Shown here: in pieces, positions 10,925 through 43,711 of the stretch
Layout: each line of letters opens with the position of its first letter
Numbering within the stretch: the first letter of the stretch is position 1
Source: Spirochaetales bacterium
GTDB lineage: Bacteria; Spirochaetota; Spirochaetia; DSM-27196; SLST01
Length of the DNA stretch: 44,775 bases
Assembly (NCBI GenBank): GCA_028284845.1
Contig: JANQQY010000172.1
Span: 1 to 44,775, forward strand
Reading direction: 5' to 3'
The notes under the pieces: model-generated
Database searches by the model: none
Told to the model about the DNA's origin: nothing
Seen by the model: only the letters and a program-made list of their open reading frames with translations
Position numbers and translations under genes: made by a program

Positions 10925-11871
10925 GAGGGAAGGCGAGGGCAGCGGCGTTCGTATGCATGATCGTAGCATCCTCAGGACTCCACGCCGCCGACATCTTCCG
11001 GTTCTACGCGCCACCCGGAGGTGTCTATGGCAATGCGGCTTTCGAGCGCGATGAGACGATCACCGTCTCAGTGACGATCGAGCACGAAGGCGTCGCGATT
11101 TCCGATTGGTTTCTGGCAATCACCACAGGCGGCGCCGGCTCATTCGAACCTCGCGAGATGTCCCAGAGCACCGACACGCTTGAGTATCAGATCTATGGGA
11201 GCACGCCGCCGTCGGCAGATATTCTCAAGGCTCCACCGGATGTTCTCACCGCCGCCAACGTCGTAACTTCGGGAGACTTCGCCTCCGTCGCCGCCACGAC
11301 GGAACGAGTCGCGTTCACGCTCTACTTCTCCATACCGTCGGCACAGTTCGTCCCATCGGGCGAGTACACGGACACCGTCTCGCTCGAACTCTATACCGGC
11401 GAGTTTGGTTCTCCGGGGACCCACGTTCTCGTTGACACCGTGGATGTCACCGTCACCGGCCGAATGGCTCAGATCGTCGACCTCTACGCAGATCGAGAGC
11501 CCGGGATCCGCTCGCTCGACCTGACGGCGACAGCCACTAACTTCCTGATCGCGACCGTCTTTGAACGAAGCAACTCGTTCACCGGCTACACCGTGACGGT
11601 GCAGAGCGTCAATCTGGCTGCAGACCTCTCCGGCGCTACCGGCCCCTTCTTTGCGCACACCACAGCATCCGACACACTCGACTATTCCCTTACCTACGGC
11701 GGCGCACCGGTCGCCGGATGGGCCGGTGGTTCTGCGACGTTGACCGACTCAGCGGCCACCACCGCGCCGGAGTGGATCGACCGCGAACTCCGGATCTCGT
11801 ACAGCGGCTCTTCCACGCTCGCGGCGGGCGACTATGAGGACAGGCTCGTCATCACGATTACGGCGAAGTAA
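10921..11871 (+). CDS. Secreted two-domain SCPU-like subunit (candidate tip/adhesin subunit)
   Basis: ATGA overlap with the usher stop. Signal peptide (AAAFVCMIVASSGLHA). It carries an internal strand motif VPSGEYTDTVSLELY (about nt 11353-11394) and a terminal AAGDYEDRLVITITAK, both resembling the C-terminus of the 7301-7816 subunit. Confidence 0.6.
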   Translation: MRGKARAAAFVCMIVASSGLHAADIFRFYAPPGGVYGNAAFERDETITVSVTIEHEGVAISDWFLAITTGGAGSFEPREMSQSTDTLEYQIYGSTPPSADILKAPPDVLTAANVVTSGDFASVAATTERVAFTLYFSIPSAQFVPSGEYTDTVSLELYTGEFGSPGTHVLVDTVDVTVTGRMAQIVDLYADREPGIRSLDLTATATNFLIATVFERSNSFTGYTVTVQSVNLAADLSGATGPFFAHTTASDTLDYSLTYGGAPVAGWAGGSATLTDSAATTAPEWIDRELRISYSGSSTLAAGDYEDRLVITITAK

Positions 11872-18820: not shown

Positions 18821-19228
18821 ATGCGACGACGGTTCATCATCTTTTTGCTCCTGACGCTGGCGGTAGTGCCGGCTTTTGCGGGCGGTCGGCAGGAGCCGGG
18901 CGCACTGATAGGTCCTGAAGAGGCGTTCGAAATGGTCCAAGCAGGGGACGCCGTTCTGGTAGATGTTCGATCAGAGGTGGCCTACCTTGAGACGCACCTC
19001 GCGGGTGCCATAAACGTTCCGCTTCAGCAGATGCAGGGCGCGGCAAGCCAACTCGAAAGCCGCGGACAGACTGCGATTACCTACTGCGCCTGCCCCGCTG
19101 AAGAGACGAGTCTCGCCGCGGCCTCCCAGCTGATCGCCGTTGGTTTCACCGACGTCCTTGTGCTGCAGGGCGGGATCAGGGACTGGGCGCTTCTGGGTCT
19201 TCCGCTTCGGTCCGGGGCTCGCCCGTAG
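18821..19228 (+). CDS. Secreted single-domain rhodanese-like protein
   Basis: ATG at 18821 after GGAGGA. Signal peptide MRRRFIIFLLLTLAVVPAFAGG. Rhodanese fold pattern ..VLVDVRSEVAYLETHLAGAINVP.. with the loop TYCACPAEETS. Confidence 0.7.
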   Translation: MRRRFIIFLLLTLAVVPAFAGGRQEPGALIGPEEAFEMVQAGDAVLVDVRSEVAYLETHLAGAINVPLQQMQGAASQLESRGQTAITYCACPAEETSLAAASQLIAVGFTDVLVLQGGIRDWALLGLPLRSGARP

Positions 19229-20132
19229 CAGCTCTCGTTTCGGTTCGAACGAACAGGAAGATAGAGACGAGAATTACCGTTGCGCCGGCGAGCGAGTGAA
19301 GCGTCGGGATCTCTCCAAAGACGATTGCCGCCAGAGCCGACGCCAACACTGGTTCGCCCAGGGTGCTCGTTGAGACAAAGGTAGGACGGACGAACCTGAG
19401 CGCCCAGCTGTAGAGGCTGTGTCCAAGTACCGTACAGAAGAGCGCGAGCGCAAGGAAGAGAGCGAACTCCCTGACCGGGTAGGGTCCGAGCGATGCGCCG
19501 GAGACGATCGCCCCAATCGAGAGGAGAATCGCTGAGACGGGGTAGACGATCATCGTGTACTCGTTGACGCTGAGCCGTTCTCGAACCACTCGTCCAATGA
19601 TGATGTAGCCGCCCACCGAGACCGCTCCAAGAAAGGCCAGAAGGTCGCCGATCGAGCTCGAGTTCGCCGTGCCTCTGTCGCCCGCCACGAGTAGAACGCT
19701 CCCCGCGACGGCGGTCAACATGAATGGAATGCTCCTCTTTCGAATCGGGTCACGAAGGAAGAGGGCGCTCGCAATGGCGACCACGATGGGGTGGGTGGAG
19801 ACGAGAACGGTGGAGTTCGCAACCGAAGTATACGAGAGCGAGGTGATCCACAGACCAAAGTGCAGTGCCAGGAAGGCACCGCTCACGGCGGAGAGTAGGA
19901 ATTCGCGCCTTCGTGGCCGTGTGTCTCTACGCTCAGATGCTCCGCCTGGTCGCAATCGACGTTCCCGCAGGTAGAGCGGCGTGACAAGCAGGACGGTGAA
20001 CACCAGTCGATAGGCCGCGATGACGAGGGGAGGTGCGGCGGAGAACCGAATCAGTATTGAAGAGAGAGATGTGAACGAGACTCCCACTGCGACGACGAGG
20101 CGTGGACGTTCTTGGAAGAAGGGAAACAGCAA
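19176..20132 (-). CDS. EamA/DMT-family transporter
   Basis: 318 aa with about 10 hydrophobic helices in two EamA-like halves. A TTG start directly abuts the cheY stop, so the start is uncertain. The 3' end overlaps the rhodanese 3' end by 53 nt. Confidence 0.7.
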   Translation of the reverse strand: MLFPFFQERPRLVVAVGVSFTSLSSILIRFSAAPPLVIAAYRLVFTVLLVTPLYLRERRLRPGGASERRDTRPRRREFLLSAVSGAFLALHFGLWITSLSYTSVANSTVLVSTHPIVVAIASALFLRDPIRKRSIPFMLTAVAGSVLLVAGDRGTANSSSIGDLLAFLGAVSVGGYIIIGRVVRERLSVNEYTMIVYPVSAILLSIGAIVSGASLGPYPVREFALFLALALFCTVLGHSLYSWALRFVRPTFVSTSTLGEPVLASALAAIVFGEIPTLHSLAGATVILVSIFLFVRTETRAATGEPRTEAEDPEAPSP

Positions 20133-20489
20133 TCAGGTAAAGAGGCGATCGATCGCCACCAGAACCCGGTCGGGTTCAAACGGCTTGATGATGAAGTCTT
20201 TCGCTCCCTTCGCGATGCAGTCGAAGACCATCTTCTTCTGGCCGACGGCACTCACAATGACGACGCGAGCATCCGCATCACGAGCGAGGATCTGCTCAAG
20301 CGCTTCTATTCCGTTCATCTGCGCCATGGTGATGTCGAGCGTGACAAAGTCCGGCGTGTACTTCTCGTAGAGCTCCACTGCCTCAAGCCCATTGGAGGCC
20401 TCAGCGACCACCTTGTACTTCGTCTCAAGAATGTCGCGGAGTCGTATCCGCATAACTGCCGCGTCGTCTACGATGAGCCCGGTAGTCAT
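20133..20489 (-). CDS. cheY: CheY-like single-domain response regulator
   Basis: 118 aa: LIVDDAAVMR.., phospho-acceptor region DFVTLDITMAQMNG, ..IVSAVGQ.. and AKDFIIKPF (conserved Lys). Confidence 0.9.
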   Translation of the reverse strand: MTTGLIVDDAAVMRIRLRDILETKYKVVAEASNGLEAVELYEKYTPDFVTLDITMAQMNGIEALEQILARDADARVVIVSAVGQKKMVFDCIAKGAKDFIIKPFEPDRVLVAIDRLFT

Positions 20490-33578: not shown

Positions 33579-33615
33579 GCCGCGGCGGACCATCTGAAAG
33601 AACTCAGCGACTTTT

Positions 33616-33770
33616 GGGTAGTGTCACGAAGCCTGTTGGTCCACATCGAATAGATCACGGTGCGCGGGAGAGATGCTCGCATCGACACTGCAACTCGCAG
33701 CACCATACCTCGTAGCTCGTTCTGCCCAAATGACCTGCACTCGGTCGGACCAACAGGCTTCGTGACACTT
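33616..33770 (-). repeat. MITE-like 155-nt element, copy A (perfect 23-bp terminal inverted repeats)
   Basis: AGTGTCACGAAGCCTGTTGGTCC (33620-33642) is the exact reverse complement of 33747-33769. The whole 155 nt aligns gap-free with the reverse complement of 43457-43611. The terminal 27 and 24 nt are identical and the 104-nt interior is about 79% identical (82/104 by hand count). The strand label only marks orientation relative to copy B. Confidence 0.8.
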
Positions 33771-33778
33771 TGGAACGC

Positions 33779-33842
33779 TTGACGTCTGAGGTATGCTGCG
33801 CTACACTACAGACCGTCAGTCGGTACAAACCGACGGTCGGTA
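33779..33842 (+). promoter_or_regulatory. Candidate tetR promoter plus palindromic operator
   Basis: TTGACG (33779-33784), 17 nt, TACACT (33802-33807). Immediately downstream is the palindrome GTCGGT-ACAA-ACCGAC (33819-33834), nested in GACCGTC...GACGGTC, with a third CCGTCGGTC copy at 33850-33858. Confidence 0.5.
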
Positions 33843-33881
33843 GGTGCCTTCCGTCGGTCTATCCGCTGACGAGGGAGTCAG

Positions 33882-34583
33882 ATGTACGTCGTGAAGGATT
33901 ATGACGAGCGAAAGACCGAGTTCCTCGATACTGCGATGCAGCTGTTCATGACGAACGGATATGAGCAGACCAGTGTCAACTCGATCATTGATGCAGTCGG
34001 CGTAAGCAAGGGAGCCTTCTACCACTACTTCAACACGAAAGAAGAGCTTCTGGACGAGCTCGCCGTTCGTGCATCCGCGCAGTCGGAGGCGGTCGTGGAT
34101 GAGGTCATCGCTCGAGAGGGTCTGAATGCTGTGGAGAAGCTCAACGCCGTCTTTGGTGCGACCAATGCGTTCAAGGCGCAGAATCGCGAACTCTTCACCG
34201 CCCTCGCGGAGGTCTTCTACAGCGACAGCAACATCCTGCTTCGCGAACGGATGTCACAGCGAAGCGTGGAGGCGATGACTCCGCGAATTGGTGCGATTAT
34301 CGAGCAGGGCAACCGCGAGGGGATCATGAGCGTGCGTCACCCGATTGAGACCTCTCGGTTCGTGCTCCGTGTTGGGACCGATATGGTGGCCGAGTTCGCC
34401 CGAGAACTGCCCGCGGCGGCTTCGGACGATCCGGATGCGTCACGTGCGGCCGCCGATCGAATCGTCCAGACACTTGAGGTCTATACCGAGTCGGTCGAAC
34501 GAATTCTCGGACTCGAATCAGGACAACTACGACTGGTAGACGAATCACTTCTCATTCTCATTCAAGGAGAATCTCATGATTAA
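33882..34583 (+). CDS. TetR/AcrR-family transcriptional regulator
   Basis: N-terminal HTH ..GYEQTSVNSIIDAVGVSKGAFYHYFNTKEEL... 233 aa with an 8-nt overlap with the ABC ATPase gene. Confidence 0.9.
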   Translation: MYVVKDYDERKTEFLDTAMQLFMTNGYEQTSVNSIIDAVGVSKGAFYHYFNTKEELLDELAVRASAQSEAVVDEVIAREGLNAVEKLNAVFGATNAFKAQNRELFTALAEVFYSDSNILLRERMSQRSVEAMTPRIGAIIEQGNREGIMSVRHPIETSRFVLRVGTDMVAEFARELPAAASDDPDASRAAADRIVQTLEVYTESVERILGLESGQLRLVDESLLILIQGESHD

Positions 34584-35430
34584 GGTTGAACACCTGACCC
34601 ACGACTACGACGGGCAAGGGCGGCTTGCCGTTGACGATGTCGGCTTCACCGTTGCCGACGGTGAGATCTTTGGATTCCTTGGTCCCTCGGGCGCTGGCAA
34701 GAGCACCGTGCAGAAGATCCTGACCGGACTCCTCACGCTCCAGTCGGGAACCGTGGAGTACGACGGAGTTGCCGTCAATTCGCTCAATTCAAGCTTCTTC
34801 AATCGAATTGGTGTTTCGTTTGAGCATCCCAATCTCTACGAGAAACTCACCGCATTCGAGAACCTTTCGTTCTTCGCCGGCCTCTTCGACGTGGAGGCTG
34901 ACGATCCTATTCGGCTGCTCGAACGAGTGAACCTGAAGGATGACGCCCACAAGAAGGCCGGCGCCTTCTCCAAGGGTATGAAGCAGCGCCTTGTTTTCTG
35001 CCGTGCACTGATGAACAAGCCGAAGATTCTCTTCCTTGACGAGCCGACCTCCGGCCTCGATCCGTCCACGGCTGAGATCATCAAGTCGATGATTCGCGAG
35101 AAGCGCGACGAGGGATGCACCGTCTTTCTGACGACGCACAATATGTTCACCGCCGATCAGCTCTGCGATCGCGTCGCCTTCATCAACGAGGGCAAGATCG
35201 TTGCGATGGACACGCCCAAGGAGCTCAAGCTTCAGTTCGGCGAACGATCTGTAGAGATGGAGTACGAGGACGGTGGCACGGTGAAGAGCGAGATCTTTTC
35301 CGTCGACTCGGACGCAGCGAAGGACACGTTTGCGACCGCGGTACGAGAGCGGCCTGTGAGGACGATCCATACCCGCGAGGCAACGCTCGAGCAGATCTTT
35401 ATCAAGCTGACCGGTCGAGGCCTCGAATGA
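34576..35430 (+). CDS. ABC-2-type exporter ATP-binding protein
   Basis: Walker A GPSGAGKST, signature FSKGMKQRL and Walker B ILFLDEPTSGLD. Confidence 0.9.
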   Translation: MIKVEHLTHDYDGQGRLAVDDVGFTVADGEIFGFLGPSGAGKSTVQKILTGLLTLQSGTVEYDGVAVNSLNSSFFNRIGVSFEHPNLYEKLTAFENLSFFAGLFDVEADDPIRLLERVNLKDDAHKKAGAFSKGMKQRLVFCRALMNKPKILFLDEPTSGLDPSTAEIIKSMIREKRDEGCTVFLTTHNMFTADQLCDRVAFINEGKIVAMDTPKELKLQFGERSVEMEYEDGGTVKSEIFSVDSDAAKDTFATAVRERPVRTIHTREATLEQIFIKLTGRGLE

Positions 35431-36458
35431 AGGCCCTCTGGACGCTCTTCAAACAGGACGCGCTTCTCTCATGGCGGAACGGGCTGATCTTGGTGACCGT
35501 CGTTACACTCGCGATCATCATCGGTCTCTACTGGCTTCTTCCGCTCTTTGTTGCCGATGAGCTGACACTTGGTCCATCCCAACTCTACTTTGACGACACC
35601 TCTGATCGATCTGTCTCGGAGCTGCTCGCTGGGGCCGAGTTCGCGGAGTCGCGCGAGGAGCTTGAGCTGGCGGTTGCCGATGCGGACGGTCTCGTTGGGA
35701 TCGTTGCCAGTGGCGATCGCCGCTCCGTCGAATTCGAGATCGTCTACAAGCACGTCCCGGATTCGGCACAGGTCAACATTCTGGAGGCAGCGCTACGCGA
35801 GATTGCGGCCACCCTTCGAGGGGAGGATCGCGCGGAGCGCATCGACTCTCGAAGTCTTCGGCCCGGCACGCCTGCGCTCACGGCGAACCAGGGATTGATC
35901 ACGGTGATGCTCGCCTTCGAAGTCATGATCCTTGGATTCCTCTTTGTTGCAGTCGTTGTATTTGGCGAAAAGACCGAAGGGAGCATTCGCGCCTATCGTG
36001 TGACACCTTCAGGGCTCGCGAACTACGTGATCTCAAAGGTTGCCGTCTTCACCATCCTGAGCACCCTCTACGGCCTCGTAATGGTCGTCGCGACGATCGG
36101 TCCGCGCGCACTTGGGCAGCTGCTTCCGGTCCTGCTCATCTCCACCGCACTCATGAGTGCCCTGGGGCTGGGGGTGGCTGTCTTCTTCAAGAACATATCG
36201 GAGTGGTTTGTCACCGGCGTTGTCGCGCTCTCAATCAACATGCTCGCGATCCTGCCCTACCAGATTCCAACCTTCAGCGCCCGATGGCTCACCTTTCTTC
36301 CGGGCTACGCAGTCATCTTCGGCGCTACCGAGATCCTCTTCCCAACCGGCGAGGTGGGGTTCGCCCAACCGATGTATCTCACGCTTGGCGTCTGGCTCGT
36401 GGCGGCGCTTGTGTTCGCCGCGGTCGCCGTGCGCCGCAGCATCATGAGGGAGGCGTAG
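35427..36458 (+). CDS. ABC-2-family exporter permease, subunit 1
   Basis: ATGA overlap with the ATPase stop. It starts MKALWTLFKQDALLSWRNGLILV. One N-terminal TM, a ~150-aa extracytoplasmic loop, then 5 TM helices. The track ORF upstream extension (35115-35426) is out of frame with and inside the ATPase gene. Confidence 0.8.
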   Translation: MKALWTLFKQDALLSWRNGLILVTVVTLAIIIGLYWLLPLFVADELTLGPSQLYFDDTSDRSVSELLAGAEFAESREELELAVADADGLVGIVASGDRRSVEFEIVYKHVPDSAQVNILEAALREIAATLRGEDRAERIDSRSLRPGTPALTANQGLITVMLAFEVMILGFLFVAVVVFGEKTEGSIRAYRVTPSGLANYVISKVAVFTILSTLYGLVMVVATIGPRALGQLLPVLLISTALMSALGLGVAVFFKNISEWFVTGVVALSINMLAILPYQIPTFSARWLTFLPGYAVIFGATEILFPTGEVGFAQPMYLTLGVWLVAALVFAAVAVRRSIMREA

Positions 36459-37457
36459 ATGTTTCGCAGGATAGCCAACTTTTTCAAACTCGATGCCGCG
36501 CTCTCTATCAGGGACAGCATCATGGTCTATAGTCTCATTTCGCCGCTCGTGCTCGCGCTTGTCGTCAGGCTGGTTGTGCCCACCGTACAAGGAACCACGT
36601 TCACGATGGTCGTGGACGAGTCTGTGCCGCAACGAGTAGCAACGGAGCTCGCTCGCTATGGCGACGTGGAGCGCGTAGCCAGCCTCGCAGCCCTCGAAGA
36701 GAGGGTCGAGGAGAACGACGACGTTCCCGGTCTCTATCGGGTCGACGAGCGATTCGTCTTGGTTCTTGAGGGAAATGAGGACGAGGGTGCTCTCGAAGGA
36801 TTTCGAACCATTGTGGCAGACGCCATCGATCTTGCAGATACCACGACGATCGCCATCACCGATCTCGAGGGAGAGGCACCTCCCATCCTCGAGTACGCGG
36901 CGGTCATGCTCGTCGTCCTTGCCCTCTTTGTTGGCGGCATACTCGTGGGGTTCAACATCGTCTACGAGAAGGAGAGCGCGGTGATTCGCGCCATGGCGGT
37001 CTCGCCCCTTCGTATGGTCGAGTACGTTGCGGCGCGCAGCATCCTCGCCGTCATTCTCGCCTACGGAGCCGGTTTTGGATCCGCCTACATCGTTCTTGGC
37101 GCCGCCGTTCCCCCGGCGTCGCTTGCGCTTGCAATCGCGGCTGCACTCTTTGTCGCCTTGCCGTTTGGCTTCATCATCGGCGCATTCGCAGACAACCAGA
37201 TGACGGCATTCGCTTTGATCAAATTGCTCATGGCCTTCTTCATCACGGTCCCGTTTGTATCGATCTTCGTCGCCGATCGATTCCAGTTCTTCTTCTTCGT
37301 CTTCCCCAACTACTGGATGTTCACATCGGTCAGTAATGCACTGGTCGGGAGCGGCGTGGTGGGGCAGGGGCTGGCGATGCTGCTTTCGGTCGTCACCGGA
37401 TTGATCATGGTAGTGCTGCTCTTTCCAAGACTGCGGAAAGGGCTACGACTCAGATAG
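36459..37457 (+). CDS. ABC-2-family exporter permease, subunit 2
   Basis: It starts on the nucleotide after the previous stop and has the same architecture as subunit 1 (N-terminal TM, large loop, C-terminal TM bundle). Confidence 0.8.
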   Translation: MFRRIANFFKLDAALSIRDSIMVYSLISPLVLALVVRLVVPTVQGTTFTMVVDESVPQRVATELARYGDVERVASLAALEERVEENDDVPGLYRVDERFVLVLEGNEDEGALEGFRTIVADAIDLADTTTIAITDLEGEAPPILEYAAVMLVVLALFVGGILVGFNIVYEKESAVIRAMAVSPLRMVEYVAARSILAVILAYGAGFGSAYIVLGAAVPPASLALAIAAALFVALPFGFIIGAFADNQMTAFALIKLLMAFFITVPFVSIFVADRFQFFFFVFPNYWMFTSVSNALVGSGVVGQGLAMLLSVVTGLIMVVLLFPRLRKGLRLR

Positions 37458-37480
37458 CCGACACGGTCGGAGGAGGAACA

Positions 37481-37687
37481 ATGGGTGTCTTGATAGTAGG
37501 AATCTTCTGCATGGCGTGGGCGGTCATCACCGCGATCGTCGCCTTCGCGAAGCCGAGAGGTCTCTGGGAGTCGGGCAAGCTGGCCGGTTTTGTGAAGATG
37601 CTGGGAAACACCGGCACCACGATCATGCTGCTCGTGCTCGCTGCCGGGGTTGGATTTCTCGGCGTCTGGTTGACCTTCCTGCGATAG
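37481..37687 (+). CDS. Small (68-aa) two-TM membrane protein
   Basis: Strong SD GGAGGAGG 5-6 nt before the ATG. Two hydrophobic helices (GVLIVGIFCMAWAVITAIVAFA; TIMLLVLAAGVGFLGVWLTFL). It lies directly after the exporter genes. Confidence 0.6.
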   Translation: MGVLIVGIFCMAWAVITAIVAFAKPRGLWESGKLAGFVKMLGNTGTTIMLLVLAAGVGFLGVWLTFLR

Positions 37688-37757
37688 GGAGTAACCCGTC
37701 ACCGCTCGACCCGGGTGCGTGACACTTGCGACAGGTGGCGTGTAGACTTATCTCTAC

Positions 37758-39014
37758 ATGGATGACCCAGGACTACTGGTGCAGACCGCCCTCATGGCGG
37801 TCTTGCTCCTGTTCTCCGCTTTCTTCTCTGGCTCAGAGACAGCCTTCTTCTCGCTCAATAGCCTTGAAAAGGACGCTCTTCGGACGCGAACGCGTGGCAA
37901 GCGCAGGACTGTCGTCGCGGTTCTCTTCCGTCAACCCGACGAAGTCCTGGTTACGATCCTGACGGGGAACATGTTCGTGAACATCTTCTCCACCTCAATC
38001 TCAGAGGCACTTGGTGCCCGATTCTTCGGCGAGTCGGCCGAACTCATTTCCATCGCCGCCATGACCCTCACGCTTTTGATCGTTGGCGAGATGACGCCCA
38101 AGAACTTCGCCATTCGCCACTCGCTCGGATTCTCCGTCTTTGCCGAACGCATTCTCAACCTCATCTATCCCGTGCTCCGTCCCATCGTTGTGCCCCTCGG
38201 TGCGATACGGAAGCTGGTCCTCTCGGCCTATCCGGAGAATCGCCGGGCCGATGCGGAGGCTCGAAACCTCGCTGTTCTCTCTGCGATTCGTATGGGATTT
38301 GAGAACGATACGATCGACCAATCGGAGCTCGCCCTCCTGGAGCGCTTCTTTCGGTTTCGTGAGAAGACCGCCGCCGATGTCATGATCCCGCGGATCGACC
38401 TGGTCTCGGCAGACGCCGCGAGCAGCGTCGACGAGCTCATTGAGAAGCTGCGTGACAATACGATTGGCAGTGACGTCGATCTTATTCCGCTCCACAAGTC
38501 CGATCTCGACCACATCACCGGCTACGTCAGACGGGTCGACCTCGTCTCCTATCGGGTGCGCGGCGAGACCGATGTACGCCTTGCAAAGCTCTCTCGCGAC
38601 GTCTACGCGGTTCCGGCCTCCAAGCCGCTTCGGGAACTCGCGGTTGAGATGATCAACAGCAGTGCGGACCTCTCTGTCGTCGTTGATGAGTACGGGGGCA
38701 CGCTTGGCGTCGTGAGCTACACGGCAATGGTCGACTATCTCTTCGACACCTTCCGCAGACCTGAAGATCGTGCGGTCCGGCTCTCATCGGACGGCATCTA
38801 CCGATTCGCCGGCTCGGTGGAGATCAAGGACGTGGAGGAGACACTTGGTGTCGAGTTCGGGTGTGACGCACGCACGATCGGCGGAATGATCGTCGAGCGG
38901 CTCGGAGAGCTCCCCGCTGTCGGGGACTCGGTAGAGTGCTTTGGATACACCCTCACCGTGAGCGAGTCCGACGGACGACGCGCCTCAGTGATTGAGGCGA
39001 GGCCCGGTGCATGA
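37758..39014 (+). CDS. CNNM/CorC/HlyC-family protein (DUF21 TM domain, CBS pair, CorC_HlyC domain), paralog 1
   Basis: The N-terminal ..LLFSAFFSGSETAFFSL.. is the DUF21 signature. Also ..VGEMTPKNFA.., a CBS region (..ADVMIPRIDLV..) and a C-terminal transporter-associated domain. Confidence 0.85.
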   Translation: MDDPGLLVQTALMAVLLLFSAFFSGSETAFFSLNSLEKDALRTRTRGKRRTVVAVLFRQPDEVLVTILTGNMFVNIFSTSISEALGARFFGESAELISIAAMTLTLLIVGEMTPKNFAIRHSLGFSVFAERILNLIYPVLRPIVVPLGAIRKLVLSAYPENRRADAEARNLAVLSAIRMGFENDTIDQSELALLERFFRFREKTAADVMIPRIDLVSADAASSVDELIEKLRDNTIGSDVDLIPLHKSDLDHITGYVRRVDLVSYRVRGETDVRLAKLSRDVYAVPASKPLRELAVEMINSSADLSVVVDEYGGTLGVVSYTAMVDYLFDTFRRPEDRAVRLSSDGIYRFAGSVEIKDVEETLGVEFGCDARTIGGMIVERLGELPAVGDSVECFGYTLTVSESDGRRASVIEARPGA

Positions 39015-40237
39015 TCTGGATTGCCATTGCTGGGTGTACCCTTGCCGCTTCGTTCTTCGCGGGGCTTGAGACCGGGCTCGTGAGCGCGAATCAATTCTCG
39101 CTCTACGCAAAAAAAGAGAAGGGCATCCTCTACGCACGCGCCGCCGACTTTCTGCTTCTCAAGCCGGAGCGTCTCCTATCAACCACGTTGATAGGAACCA
39201 ATATTTCGGTCGTCACCTCGGCGACGCTCCTCGCCAATTTCCTACGCCAGAGCGGCCCGGAGTGGTCGCGGTGGGTCGGGAGCATCGGGCTCGCCGTCGC
39301 GATGCTCATCTTCTCCGAAGTCGTTCCCAAGTCGTTCTTCCGACAGAATGCGGATACGGTTGCGGTCAGGCTCGCGCCGGTCCTCGTTGTCTTTTTTGTA
39401 CTCTTCTCGCCGCTCGCACTGATTCTGAATACGATTGTGAAAGGAATCCTCTGGATCACCGGACAGCTCGAGTCGAGTAACGAGGCGGTTAGTTCACGAC
39501 AGTCGCTTCGAACGCTTGTTCGCCTCAGCAGCCGGGAAGCCGGCATCCCCCTTGAGGACCAACGGATCGTTGAGGACATCTTCGACTTTCAGGATACCCT
39601 CGCACGCGAAGTGATGATTCAGATTCATCGGACGCTCTCCTGCCCCCGGTCAATGGATCATAAAGAGATTGTGATGCGAGCGACCGAGTGGAACGTTCGC
39701 TTTGTGCCGATCTACGACCAGAGAATCGACAATGTCTTGGGGTTCATCGATATTGCCGAGCTTGCCGTCTCTCCGTCGCTCGAACTCGATGAGATCATCC
39801 ATCCGCCTCGGTTCTTTCCCGACACAAAGCCAATACCCGACCTCCTTCTGGCCATGAACTCGGAGAAGCTTCGTGTCGTCTTCCTTTCGAATGAATACGG
39901 TCGCATCTCAGGAATCATCACCCCCACCGAGATCGTGGGAGAGATCATGGAGCGGCGGCCGGGTGGGACCGGACACCGGCTTGAAATTCGGCCGCTCGAG
40001 GAGGGCGGATATTCGATTCTGGGGCTTGCGGACGTAGAGGACGTGCGCCACGTTGCGGGAGTCATGATTCCTGACGGACCGTATGACACGCTTGGCGGGT
40101 ACCTCCTGACGCGCTTTGGCCGCATCCCGGAAGTGAATGAGTCGATTGCTGACGACAACGTCACCTACGTGGTAGAGGATCGTGACGATCTCCATATCAA
40201 GAGGGTGCGTGTGACGCCAACCACCGCGCCTGCATAG
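39011..40237 (+). CDS. CNNM/CorC/HlyC-family protein, paralog 2
   Basis: ATGA overlap with paralog 1. ..SFFAGLETGLVS.., ..FSEVVPKSFF.., CBS region (..REVMIQIHRT..) and a C-terminal CorC_HlyC-like domain. Confidence 0.85.
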   Translation: MIWIAIAGCTLAASFFAGLETGLVSANQFSLYAKKEKGILYARAADFLLLKPERLLSTTLIGTNISVVTSATLLANFLRQSGPEWSRWVGSIGLAVAMLIFSEVVPKSFFRQNADTVAVRLAPVLVVFFVLFSPLALILNTIVKGILWITGQLESSNEAVSSRQSLRTLVRLSSREAGIPLEDQRIVEDIFDFQDTLAREVMIQIHRTLSCPRSMDHKEIVMRATEWNVRFVPIYDQRIDNVLGFIDIAELAVSPSLELDEIIHPPRFFPDTKPIPDLLLAMNSEKLRVVFLSNEYGRISGIITPTEIVGEIMERRPGGTGHRLEIRPLEEGGYSILGLADVEDVRHVAGVMIPDGPYDTLGGYLLTRFGRIPEVNESIADDNVTYVVEDRDDLHIKRVRVTPTTAPA

Positions 40238-40249
40238 GCGCCTGCCCCA

Positions 40250-40267
40250 GACGCGGAGGGACGCGTC
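40250..40267. terminator. Weak GC hairpin between convergent genes
   Basis: GACGCG-gaggga-CGCGTC (6-bp stem, 6-nt loop) with no U-tract on either strand. Confidence 0.25.
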
Positions 40268-40275
40268 GGAACTGC

Positions 40276-41214
40276 CTACAGTTCGGCGATGAACTGCAGA
40301 ATGATCTCGCCCGTGATCTCGGGCCACTCAACATGAGGCAGATGCCCGCACTCCGGTATTGCCTGGAGTGAGCTACCCGGGATCGCCCGATTGAACCGGG
40401 CCGCCCAACTGAAGTCGAGTACTCGATCCTCTGCGCCCCAGATGATAAGCGTCGGGACATCGATCGATCGCAGTTCCTCCGGCTCAAGATGATCGGTGAC
40501 GACGTGGCGTGTGATGCTTGCGAGCGCCGGGAGTGCGTTCTCCGTGTGGAACGTTGCATTGGCAAGGTAGTTCACATAGTCGTCAGGAATACGATCGGGA
40601 TTGGCGAAGACCTGCGTGCGGATCGCCGCCCGCATGACAGTCTCGTTGTGGAGTGTCATTCCGGCGTCCACAAGCATGCCGGTATCCGCCAGGAACTCGA
40701 TGATCGCGCCCGCCTCGTCCGGTAGGCCATACGGCGCGATCAGGATCAGCGCCTCGAGCCCGGATGGGTCTCTCGATGCGAATCGCGAAGCGATCATGCC
40801 ACCCATCGAATGCCCAACAAGGACGTAGCGCTCCAGCTCAAGCGCTTCGAGGAACGCTTCAAGGAATGCGACATAGCCGTCCAGCGTGTAGACGGTGTCG
40901 CGCTTCTGCGAGTATCCGCTCCCAGGGAGGTCGGGAGCAATCAGGCGCGTCTGAGAGCCAAGGCCCTCCCGCAAGAAACGTGCCTCGAAACCGGTCCCCG
41001 AATACCCGTGCACCAGGACGATAGGCGTCCTCTGGAGTTCGGTGCCGGGATAGTCGATGTAGTGAATGCGGTCGCCGCCAATGTCGAGGAAGCCGGCGTA
41101 GTCTTCGGGGTAGCTTTCGACAACAAGAGCCTCGTTTGACGCGCACGAGAAGACCAGCGCCGACGTGATGATTGCCAATCCGGCTCGGACGAGGGCTCTA
41201 TTGTAGTTCTTCAT
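40276..41214 (-). CDS. Alpha/beta-fold hydrolase, probable lipoprotein
   Basis: ATG at 41214 gives MKNYNRALVRAGLAIITSALVFSC (lipobox-like VFSC). Nucleophile elbow GHSMGG and a C-terminal ..CGHLPHVE.. His. The track start at 41259 is GTG without an SD. Confidence 0.8.
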   Translation of the reverse strand: MKNYNRALVRAGLAIITSALVFSCASNEALVVESYPEDYAGFLDIGGDRIHYIDYPGTELQRTPIVLVHGYSGTGFEARFLREGLGSQTRLIAPDLPGSGYSQKRDTVYTLDGYVAFLEAFLEALELERYVLVGHSMGGMIASRFASRDPSGLEALILIAPYGLPDEAGAIIEFLADTGMLVDAGMTLHNETVMRAAIRTQVFANPDRIPDDYVNYLANATFHTENALPALASITRHVVTDHLEPEELRSIDVPTLIIWGAEDRVLDFSWAARFNRAIPGSSLQAIPECGHLPHVEWPEITGEIILQFIAEL

Positions 41215-41329
41215 CTGCTCAGCCGATTTGAGTCTACCATCCTGGGAGTCTTCCGCCACCTGCCGAGGGATTAGTCATCAAAATGTTACAATCGACAGAA
41301 ATCTTGGTTCATACCAGAAGGAGAGGCGA

Positions 41330-41995
41330 ATGAAAACGGAGATTCAAGGCAGTCCGTCGTTCAGTCACGTCCACATCGATCTCTCGCCCGGCGAGAGAGT
41401 CATCGTTGAGGCGGGGGCGATGCAGTCGATGTCGGCAGAGCTCGGCATGAAGGCGAAGTCGAACGGCGGATTCTTCTCGGCACTTGGCAAAAAGGTGTTT
41501 GGCGGTGAGTCGTTCTTTGTGAATCACTTCACCAATGAGTCGAGCGCTCCGCAGCGGGTGACGATTGCCCAGGACGTTCCCGGTGAAGTGATTGAGATGC
41601 AGATTCGAGAGGGACAGGACATTTCGTTGCAGCGCGGCACCTACCTTGCGAGCACGGATGGCGTACGGATTAAGACAAGCTGGGCCGGATTCGTGAGCTG
41701 GTTTTCCGGCGAGGGGCTGGTCAAGCTCAGGGCGACGGGAAGCGGCACACTCTGGTTCGGTGCCTACGGTGGCATCGTCACCCGCGAGGTGCGAGGCGAC
41801 CTCAAGGTCGACGATGGTCATCTCGTTGCCTATGACTCGAGTCTGAAGCTCAAGCTTGCGCTTGCGGGTGGACTCTTCGCGAGCATGTTTGGTGGAGAGG
41901 GTCTTGTCACACGACTCATTGGCAACGGGACGGTCTACATCCAGACTCGTAGCATCAAAGGCCTGGCCTCATGGCTCAATCCAAAGTTCCGGTAG
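41330..41995 (+). CDS. AIM24/TIGR00266-family protein, paralog 1
   Basis: ATG at 41330 after AAGGAGAGG. Family motifs ..VEAGAMQSMS.., FGGESFFVNHFT, WFSGEGLVKLRATGSGTLWF and FGGEGLVTRLIGNGTVYIQT. Confidence 0.8.
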   Translation: MKTEIQGSPSFSHVHIDLSPGERVIVEAGAMQSMSAELGMKAKSNGGFFSALGKKVFGGESFFVNHFTNESSAPQRVTIAQDVPGEVIEMQIREGQDISLQRGTYLASTDGVRIKTSWAGFVSWFSGEGLVKLRATGSGTLWFGAYGGIVTREVRGDLKVDDGHLVAYDSSLKLKLALAGGLFASMFGGEGLVTRLIGNGTVYIQTRSIKGLASWLNPKFR

Positions 41996-42004
41996 GAGGG
42001 TCGC

Positions 42005-42691
42005 ATGAACGTTGAAATCTTGACACGTCCCGCGAATGCGGCTGCGAAGGTGAGTCTCGGTTCCGGTGAGACCTGCACGACGGAGGGCGGCGCAATGATC
42101 GCGATGTCGTCCGATATGAGCGTTGATACCCGCGTCAGCAAGAAAGAGGGAGGCGGTCTCCTCAAGGGCCTTGCCCGTCGTCTTGGCGGCGAAGGCATCT
42201 TTATGAACCACTTCACTGCCGGTGGATCTGGTGGTGAGCTTTACCTGGCATCGCCGTTGCCGGGCGACATGGAGGTCATCGAGCTCGATGGGGCACACGG
42301 ACTCCAGGTGCAGAATTCCAGCTTTGTTGCGCACGAGACCGGCGTTGAGATGAACATCAGCTGGGGTGGTGCCAAGAACCTCTTCAGCGGTGAAAGCCTG
42401 ATCTGGCTCAGCATGACAGGCAGAGGGAAGGTCATCATCAACGCGTTTGGTGCCATCTATCCGGTAGAGGTCGACGGCGAATACATCGTTGATACCGGCA
42501 ACATCGCCGCCTTTGAGGACACTCTCGAGTTCAAGATCAGCAAGGGCGGACGTACCCTTGTCGGGGCCTTTGCCGGTGGTGAGGGTCTCGTCTGCCGCTT
42601 CCAGGGGATGGGCACTGTCTGGTGTCAGACACACGCCGATCGCGCCTTTGGTGCGAAGCTCACCCCGCACCTCGTCCCAAAGAAGAACTAA
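42005..42691 (+). CDS. AIM24/TIGR00266-family protein, paralog 2
   Basis: AGGAGGG SD. ..TEGGAMIAMS.., LGGEGIFMNHFT, LFSGESLIWLSMTGRGKVII and AGGEGLVCRFQGMGTVWCQT. Confidence 0.8.
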   Translation: MNVEILTRPANAAAKVSLGSGETCTTEGGAMIAMSSDMSVDTRVSKKEGGGLLKGLARRLGGEGIFMNHFTAGGSGGELYLASPLPGDMEVIELDGAHGLQVQNSSFVAHETGVEMNISWGGAKNLFSGESLIWLSMTGRGKVIINAFGAIYPVEVDGEYIVDTGNIAAFEDTLEFKISKGGRTLVGAFAGGEGLVCRFQGMGTVWCQTHADRAFGAKLTPHLVPKKN

Positions 42692-42701
42692 GGAGCATCT
42701 C

Positions 42702-43388
42702 ATGACGACAGAACGGACAGACTTTCCACATGAGATCGTTGCCGCTCCTGACTACGGTATGGTGAACGTGACGATACCGGCCGGCAAGACGCTCCAAGTC
42801 GAAGCGAGTGCCATGGCATGGATGGATTCGTCCCTCACCATGAAAACCAAGATGAAGGGCGGACTGAAGCGCCTTCTGACCGGCGAGAAGCTCTTTATCA
42901 ACAGCTTCACCGCGGAGAGTGAGCAGGCTGCGATCGGGATTGCCCCGGGTACGCCCGGAGATCTCGCCCACGTCTACCTCGAGAACGAGACCATCTTTCT
43001 GCAAAACTCCTCCTACCTCGCCTCGAGTCCTGAGCTCGAGGTGGCCGCCGAGTTCCAAGGCTTCAAGGGGTTCTTTTCCGGAGAGAAGCTCTTTATGGTC
43101 CGATGCTCCGGAACCGGCGATCTCTGGTTCAACACCTTTGGATCGATCATCGAGATCGATGTGACCGGGAACTACGTCGTTGATACCGGCCATATCGTAG
43201 GGTTCACGGAAGGACTCTCCTTCGACGTGCGCCCCGTGGCCGGGATGAAGAGCCTCTTCTTCTCCGGCGAAGGTCTCGTCTGCCGCTTCAGCGGCCAGGG
43301 AAAGGTCTGGATTCAATCGCGCAAGAATCCGGCATTCATCCGATGGGCCGATCAGTTCCGCAGGGTTGAGAAGAAGAACGACTCGTAG
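42702..43388 (+). CDS. AIM24/TIGR00266-family protein, paralog 3
   Basis: ATG at 42702 after AAGGAG. ..VEASAMAWMD.., LTGEKLFINSFT, FFSGEKLFMVRCSGTGDLWF and FSGEGLVCRFSGQGKVWIQS. Confidence 0.8.
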   Translation: MTTERTDFPHEIVAAPDYGMVNVTIPAGKTLQVEASAMAWMDSSLTMKTKMKGGLKRLLTGEKLFINSFTAESEQAAIGIAPGTPGDLAHVYLENETIFLQNSSYLASSPELEVAAEFQGFKGFFSGEKLFMVRCSGTGDLWFNTFGSIIEIDVTGNYVVDTGHIVGFTEGLSFDVRPVAGMKSLFFSGEGLVCRFSGQGKVWIQSRKNPAFIRWADQFRRVEKKNDS

Positions 43389-43456
43389 ATCCATTGGCCG
43401 GTCGCGATTCACTGTCGCGGCCGGCTACGTTCCATTGGGAAGCGGCATGTCTTGCG

Positions 43457-43611
43457 AAGTGTCACGAAGCCTGTTGGTCCGACCGAATGCAGGTCCTTTA
43501 GGCAGAGCGAGTTGCGAGGCATCGTGCTGCGAGCTGCAGAGTCGATGAGCGTATCTATCGCGCGCGTCGTAATCTAACCGAAATGGACCAACAGGCTTCG
43601 TGACACTACCC
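43457..43611 (+). repeat. MITE-like 155-nt element, copy B (inverted relative to copy A)
   Basis: GTGTCACGAAGCCTGTTGGTCC (43459-43480) is the reverse complement of 43585-43606. The full element matches the reverse complement of 33616-33770 (see copy A). Confidence 0.8.
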
Positions 43612-43711
43612 ACGTCTTGGCGGTAGGGATAGGGCCTCACTCAGAGCGTGCCACGCATTTTGTACCTTTTTACTTGACTATCTAAAGTGACTTACTGTAC
43701 TAATAGCGCAT

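Follow-up and report, generated by a model that had tools for sequence, protein, structure and literature searches.

What are the two inverted copies of a short repeat that bracket a 9.7-kb gene block on contig C439 (GenBank JANQQY010000172.1) of a Spirochaetales genome, and has the pair acted together on the genes between them? The contig, analysed here over its full length of 44,775 nt and called the window in the following, belongs to a spirochaete metagenome-assembled genome (MAG; G000, assembly GCA_028284845.1), which comprises 4.49 Mb in 720 contigs and is 90% complete. The initial annotation of the window, made from its letters alone, had offered three readings: a miniature transposable element with inverted repeats (MITE), a structured element similar to repetitive extragenic palindromes (REPs), and inverted repeats that permit inversion or mobilisation of the enclosed block. 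The first of these readings is supported by multiple copies, terminal inverted repeats (TIRs), 9-bp target-site duplications (TSDs), restriction to one species, and the presence of a resident insertion sequence (IS) with the same end type and TSD length. The two repeats are thus very probably independent insertions of a small non-coding mobile element whose ends match those of the resident IS. A MITE is an ordinary kind of element, and this family seems undescribed: a literature search returned general MITE surveys only, and nothing on the element in the window. MITEs are reported to be enriched in Spirochaetes genomes, and their TSDs typically measure 2-10 bp (PMC11602168).

The two copies are reverse complements of each other, with 86% identity over 156 nt, and a repeat search returned positions 33615-33784 and 43443-43612 as inverted repeat arms that are 84% identical over 170 nt. 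A perfect 23-bp TIR (AGTGTCACGAAGCCTGTTGGTCC) is found at both ends of both copies, as had been claimed. The repeats had been described as inverted copies of 155 nt; the orientation holds, while the length has to be corrected, because the TSD register lies 3 nt outside the TIRs and makes the element 156 nt long. This 3-nt extension beyond each TIR was deduced from where the TSDs lie in sister copies and in the IS. The features of the window are as follows:

33617-33772, forward strand: MITE copy A, 156 nt, GGT-AGTGTCAC...GTGACACT-TTG, with the 23-bp TIRs at 33620-33642 and 33747-33769.
43455-43610, reverse strand (opposite to copy A): MITE copy B, 156 nt, with the 23-bp TIRs at 43458-43480 and 43585-43607.
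43446-43454, no strand: left TSD of copy B, CATGTCTTG, matching the right TSD in 8/9 positions.
43611-43619, no strand: right TSD of copy B, CACGTCTTG.
33608-33616, no strand: left flank of copy A at the TSD position, CGACTTTTG, matching the right flank in 5/9 positions; decayed or rearranged.
33773-33781, no strand: right flank of copy A at the TSD position, GAACGCTTG, overlapping the -35 hexamer of the tetR promoter-like site.
33779-33807, forward strand: sigma-70-like tetR promoter, TTGACG-17-TACACT, starting 7 nt past copy A (context only).

In a gap-free pairwise alignment, the copies differ at 0/46 TIR positions and at 22/104 interior positions, the same value as the 82/104 identical positions counted previously. 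Both copies are intergenic, in line with the initial annotation: copy A is preceded by the GH3 stop (33578) and followed by the tetR start (33882), and copy B occupies the gap from the stop of the last AIM24 gene (43388) to the thiS start (43712). The gene names given earlier were recovered by Pfam (GH3, TetR, an ABC ATPase, two ABC-2 permeases, two CNNM/CorC proteins, an alpha/beta hydrolase, three AIM24 proteins, ThiS and ThiF), and no transposase is present among the genes between the copies, as had also been noted. A 68-amino-acid (aa) open reading frame (ORF) in the block has no Pfam match.

A search of the whole genome, as proposed with the initial annotation, revealed that the window holds only two members of a larger family. 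With BLAST and nhmmer, five close copies were found in G000, each exactly 150 nt long between the TIR ends, together with more diverged and shorter relatives:

Close copies: C439 (twice), C50:2924-3073, C409:11045-11194 and C621:11576-11725.
Diverged relatives, about 10, of 145-151 nt: on C409, C68, C554, C445, C306, C58, C67, C382 and C560.
Short versions of 69-80 nt: on C319 and C327.

Close and diverged copies are spread over at least 12 contigs and occupy the spaces that separate long ORFs; several are placed where two genes end convergently. Their interiors differ by 16-28%; among the close copies, 2/46 TIR columns vary versus 42/104 interior columns (Fisher p=1.7e-6). A degenerate end motif, RGTGTCAYNNNVCNNGKTG, occurs 55 times in G000 and 0-8 times in each of 60 relatives, and the reversed control pattern does not occur at all (0), so that the abundance of the motif is far beyond chance. 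The close subfamily was undetectable in the 60 relatives, all 11 congeneric species included. When about 185,000 species genomes were scanned for paired ends at MITE spacing, only three other MAGs were found, all labelled Spirochaetales, which implies that the end type is clade-specific. Metagenomes scanned for the MITE TIR yielded a single solo motif and no IS. Long TIR pairs at C302 (1.8 kb), C583 (1.8 kb) and C110 (0.6 kb) were considered as autonomous elements and rejected; they enclose ordinary genes (for a beta-lactamase-like protein, a glycoside hydrolase-like protein and an OppC-like permease), and one motif or more is part of a conserved coding region, so that these are chance or solo motifs. 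A stretch of 9 kb on C409 contains two MITE copies that belong to different subfamilies as well as one end of an IS copy (11045-11194, 19155-19304, 20102-20194), a cluster that may be a local hotspot of the family.

The register in which TSDs were scored was taken from a sister MITE family in G016 (different family, same order). This genome contains three 165-nt copies with the ends TGA-AGTGTCAC...GTGACAC-ATTC, which are flanked by 9-bp direct repeats (CGAGGTTCG, CGATTGTCG and CAACCAtTG/CAACCAcTG). In the corresponding register of G000, 3 nt outside each 23-bp TIR, the copy on C50 scores 9/9 (AGCTCCTCG), the copy on C621 and copy B in the window score 8/9, and three diverged copies score 7/9. 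A score of at least 7 is thus reached by 6/16 elements, compared to a probability of P=0.0034 per pair for random 9-mer pairs at the same spacing; for 8/9 or better, the value of copy B, the chance probability is P=0.0004. The short direct repeats reported initially fared differently at the two sites: GTCTTG at copy B falls within the real 9-bp TSD (CATGTCTTG/CACGTCTTG), whereas TTTGG at copy A does not belong to a clean TSD, since the flanks CGACTTTTG and GAACGCTTG match in 5/9 positions only. Another close copy, C409a, scores 3/9, and both of these sites are old or disturbed. The spacer between GH3 and tetR, in which copy A resides, measures 303 nt in the window (33579-33881, of which 156 nt are the MITE) versus about 900 nt in the congener G004 (L050, 6504-7404), where it contains an ORF of about 220 aa on the reverse strand, absent from the window. 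A deletion adjoining copy A is possible, and could also account for the poor TSD of this copy. The initial annotation had held that a local regulatory hairpin would be favoured if these two copies were the only ones, TSDs were lacking and the block was syntenic and uninterrupted in all relatives; instead, the element is multi-copy and 9-bp TSDs are present.

The MITE carries no transposase, and a partner with matching ends, another suggestion of the initial annotation, was found in the same genome, albeit with a TIR that is similar rather than identical. Contigs C409 and C410 end in the same 100 nt, which start with a TIR-like sequence (TGT-AGTGTCATCGAGCCTGTTGTTCT) followed by an ORF start, MPRPRHCHNRS; such a shared end is the signature of a collapsed multi-copy element. 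The TIR of this C409/C410 variant is identical to the MITE TIR in 18/23 positions. A BLAST search with this contig end against the order matched a gene start in the congener G011, where a 385-aa protein (P0001) is encoded. Matches to P0001 occur in 66/99 genomes of the order; three complete genomes contain 12-14 copies each, and G071 contains 10. In G000, fragments of the protein are located at contig ends, namely N-termini on C377 and C394, residues 50-379 on C389, and a C-terminus on C345. C377 and C389 could be joined through a 99-nt exact overlap, yielding a 1,226-bp IS with the left inverted repeat GGT-AGTGTCACTCACCGTGGAGATAC and the right inverted repeat (IRR) GGC-AGTGTCACGCAGCCTGGAGATAC, i.e., an end type of GG(T/C)-AGTGTCAC. 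It encodes a single 385-aa ORF, the stop codon of which lies within the IRR, and it is flanked on both sides by the 9-mer CGAGCTTTG, a perfect 9-bp TSD (9/9). An IS in the same genome therefore has the end type, the 3-nt terminal extension and the TSD length of the MITE.

Similar elements are found elsewhere in the order. G071 contains five near-identical 1.28-kb copies of the same architecture, with the ends TGA-AGTATTCACAAGC(G/C)TGTTGA. One 9-mer, CAAGCTGTC, flanks the right end of the IS on G071:C30 (L115) and the left end of a near-identical copy on G071:C3 (L117), due to either recombination between IS copies that swapped their flanks or a mis-join by the assembler. On G011:C81 (L080), a 147-nt MITE-like element with the TIR ACTGTCATCCACCTTGCAGG / CCTGCAATCTCGATGACAGT occupies positions 417-563, directly upstream of a transposase gene around which there are no clear IS ends; the IS at this locus may have decayed, and a MITE may have inserted at its end.

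The 385-aa protein has the features of a transposase. Its AlphaFold model (pLDDT 82, pTM 0.85) comprises a zinc ribbon, a helical DNA-binding part and a beta-beta-beta-alpha-beta-alpha-beta core, and the best Foldseek matches in the PDB are retroviral integrases and the transposases ISCth4, Mu and Metnase (E about 1e-3 to 4e-2), which together indicate an RNase-H-like DDE fold. Across 16 aligned homologues, four Cys are invariant (C7, C12, C42, C45), the helix-turn-helix (HTH) is conserved, and the acidic residues D124, D211/E212, D259 and E268 are kept; the homologues likewise consist of a single uninterrupted ORF. Public records label them “hypothetical” or “transposase-like,” and most of them reside on metagenome contigs of 1.2-1.5 kb. 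Pfam returned weak HTH matches only and no transposase model. The best NCBIfam family is IS1 (NF033558), at 16-35 bits versus a cut-off of 100 (E 1e-4 to 1.5e-8), and the IS1/IS1595 zinc domain (NF050000) matches below threshold. Against E. coli InsA, hhalign aligned the zinc finger and the HTH, including a ..H..QRY.C..C motif (E=3.5e-4, probability 37%); against InsB, a TDxxPLY motif alone aligned, which is not significant (probability 0.8%). The model PF03400 (DDE_Tnp_IS1) had no matches in G000 and 40 relatives, while an E. coli control was positive. A typical IS1 is therefore ruled out as the partner by the empty PF03400 result in these 41 genomes, leaving a distant, sub-threshold relation to IS1: the partner is a distantly IS1-like, uncurated IS family and not a member of IS1.

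Lineage-specific MITE families of 145-170 nt were seen in G000, G006, G014, G016 and G011. A broader proposal, to which we give somewhat less than an even chance, is that the transposase with its zinc ribbon, HTH and DDE core, GTGTCAC-type TIRs and 9-bp TSD represents either an IS family that is not yet catalogued or a deeply branching single-ORF lineage of IS1, that it is confined to one order of Spirochaetota, where it would have spawned such MITE families repeatedly, and that the element in the window stems from one such burst.

How might the MITE have been mobilised? The ends of 23-26 bp probably serve as binding and cleavage sites of a DDE transposase that is supplied in trans by the 1.2-kb IS family, most likely by the C409/C410 variant, and insertion duplicates 9 bp of the target. 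The contrast between conserved ends and diverged interiors presumably reflects the recognition requirement of the transposase, with ends being kept because only copies with good ends would transpose. The initial suggestion of selection on the termini, for either protein binding or the stem, is right; protein binding is favoured, since changes in one TIR arm are uncompensated in the other. Near-intact TSDs adjoin interiors that differ by 16-28%, which suggests that much of the divergence predates insertion and that there were several master lineages. The 9.7-kb block between the two copies is very probably incidental.

Several observations weigh against the identification as a MITE mobilised by this IS. 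Convincing TSDs are lacking in 2/5 close copies, copy A included (5/9 and 3/9). No transposase-bearing element with the exact MITE TIR was found; the best match is the 18/23 variant, the interior of which is absent from the MAG, where no further overlap extends the contig ends, and an exact-match metagenome scan for it was empty as well. The TIRs of the MITE and of the assembled IS agree in 14/23 positions, and nothing in this IS resembles the interior of the MITE, so that the MITE is not a simple deletion derivative. With interiors that differ by 16-28%, no copy is demonstrably a recent transposition, and neither an empty site nor a presence/absence polymorphism was found among the congeners, which are too diverged for this comparison (orthologues share about 60-75% aa identity). 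Finally, an internal hairpin (alignment columns 39-47/57-65), in which 6/8 pairs show changes on both sides, could hint at an additional structural constraint, judging from eight related sequences with 77% of the cells paired.

This hairpin leads to the second reading of the initial annotation, a REP-like element that would act through its fold as a bidirectional terminator, mRNA stabiliser or protein-binding palindrome and would have been spread by selection rather than by a transposase. Its appeal lies in the 23-bp stem, which gives a very stable fold on either strand (-69 to -79 kcal/mol, z about -6 to -8 versus shuffled sequences), in the uniform length of the close copies, and in their location in intergenic spacers, several between convergent gene ends. 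The stability of the fold, however, is accounted for by the stem itself, and the interior folds differ among copies. Neither copy A nor copy B has a terminator-like site, and no Rfam family matched at E<=1. A covariation analysis of the kind suggested in the initial annotation did not support a conserved RNA fold either: an alignment of eight copies shows, for the terminal helix, 17 invariant pairs, two with G-U changes, two with mismatches and none with a compensatory change, i.e., the long stem acquires mismatches when one arm varies. The internal hairpin, in which the signal is weak, is treated as unexplained and not as evidence for RNA function. Moreover, 9-bp flank duplications are a signature of transposase and not of hairpin function, a transposase gene is bounded by the same ends, and the close subfamily, unlike a conserved regulatory element, is missing from all congeners. 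As the primary nature of the element, a REP-like hairpin is quite unlikely.

Less probable still, and very unlikely, is a joint action of the two copies, either as ends of a composite transposon that imported the 9.7-kb block or as recombination substrates that inverted it, as the third reading had it. The copies are indeed inverted, copy A has no clean TSD of its own, and the enclosed block lacks conserved synteny: in G004, 40 kb separate the AIM24 triplet from tetR, a gene other than thiS/thiF comes after the triplet, no CNNM gene follows the ABC-2 genes, and the congeners with ThiF orthologues (G005, G006, G011) and those with the AIM24 triplet (G002, G004, G007, G008) form disjoint sets. 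Yet copy B has its own 8/9 TSD, one copy of which is inside the block and the other outside; it therefore inserted alone, and its flanks have not been exchanged by a net inversion. Between the outer flanks of the pair (CGACTTTTG and CACGTCTTG), 5/9 positions match, and three of these five are due to a shared TTG target preference. In G004, the left junction is native: a GH3 orthologue (75% identity) is followed by a tetR promoter/operator region resembling that of the window, by tetR, and by three ORFs that match the ABC ATPase and the two ABC-2 permeases in size and order; tetR and the ABC genes thus did not arrive with the block. The G004 spacer itself contains a small reverse-strand gene where the window has the MITE, and is not a clean empty site. 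In addition, elements without a transposase gene would have to mobilise the block, and 156 nt at 86% identity are a poor substrate for homologous recombination. The synteny comparison that had been recommended therefore speaks against a mobile or invertible unit: the adjacency of GH3 and tetR is native in G004, and the enclosed genes are not a unit in any relative. Copy B marks a junction unique to this species, but this is a correlation only, as the congeners are diverged. A peptide-coding element, lastly, is ruled out, since ORFs overlapping the copies have no Pfam match and no reading frame is open in all five close copies.

Any effects of the two insertions on neighbouring genes would be possible side-effects. 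Copy A ends 7 nt before the -35 hexamer of tetR and separates the tetR promoter from the GH3 gene. In G004, which has no MITE, tetR is likewise preceded by the CTTGACG box. Further downstream (33808-33860 in the window; L050, 6520-6600 in G004), repeated palindromic boxes of the GGTACAAACCGACGGTCGGTA type are conserved in both genomes and presumably constitute the TetR operator. Both copies would place a 23-bp hairpin into read-through RNA. Since one MITE precedes the -35 hexamer of an efflux operon's tetR by 7 nt and the other lies where genes adjoin that are neighbours in no congener, insertions of this family may help to alter regulation and gene order in these spirochaetes.

A single IS/MITE system explains several contig breaks in this MAG, along with about 15 of its intergenic “palindromes.” Its transposase is missed by Pfam, and public records carry the labels cited above. 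The understanding of how MITEs work is unchanged by these observations, and the most novel claim that can be defended concerns the IS family rather than the two repeats in the window.

A second repeat family in G000 is unrelated to the MITE. It consists of copies of about 145 nt with the ends GCGACATAAC...GTTATGTCGC, seven of which are located on one 12-kb contig, about 1 kb apart (C176, 1136-11409), in addition to C8:2733-2879 and C252:2988-3123. Between the copies on C176 are single small genes, including nitrilase-like, methyltransferase, NUDIX and APH-like kinase genes and a Phd/Doc-like pair. Judged by this arrangement, the array looks like a chromosomal integron cassette array with attC sites.

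How does the IS/MITE system compare to known ones? REPs are not known to have TSDs and are linked to RAYT tyrosine transposases. The MITE resembles REPs and bacterial interspersed mosaic elements in being intergenic, repeated and hairpin-forming, and differs from REPs in its 9-bp TSDs, in ends shared with a DDE-type IS, and in its length of 156 nt, compared to the 20-40 nt given for REPs (PMC3733652). In a composite transposon, two IS copies that encode transposase enclose the cargo, and a TSD is found at the outer ends only; the pair in the window does not fit, because the flanking elements are non-coding and the TSD of copy B spans its own inner and outer flanks.

IS1 has ends with a GGnnnTG consensus and TSDs of 8-9 bp. 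Compared to E. coli IS1A (NC_000913, 19796-20563), the partner IS is alike in its 9-bp TSD, its small size (1.2 kb) and an ORF that ends within the IRR; its ends, GGTAGTG/GGCAGTG, fit the consensus, its N-terminal zinc finger followed by an HTH is InsA-like, and the TDxxPLY motif is common with InsB. It differs from IS1 in having one 385-aa ORF instead of insA and insB' joined by a programmed -1 frameshift, in a much longer catalytic domain, and in NF033558 scores far below the cut-off.

The closest parallels are known bacterial MITEs such as the Correia elements of Neisseria and RUP of Streptococcus pneumoniae, which duplicate TA and have IS630/IS5 as partners. The family described here has a different TIR sequence, a TSD of 9 bp instead of TA, an uncurated IS1-like partner instead of IS630/IS5, and an interior unrelated to the partner IS. 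In other respects, it matches what defines a MITE: it is short (such elements measure about 50-800 bp) and non-coding, has TIRs, a fixed 9-bp TSD and multiple dispersed copies, and coexists with an IS of matching end type. Like Correia and RUP, its members are elements of about 100-160 nt with TIRs of at least 20 bp, TSDs and tens of intergenic copies per genome, and their ends are similar to the termini of a resident IS, the source, here a probable one, of the transposase.

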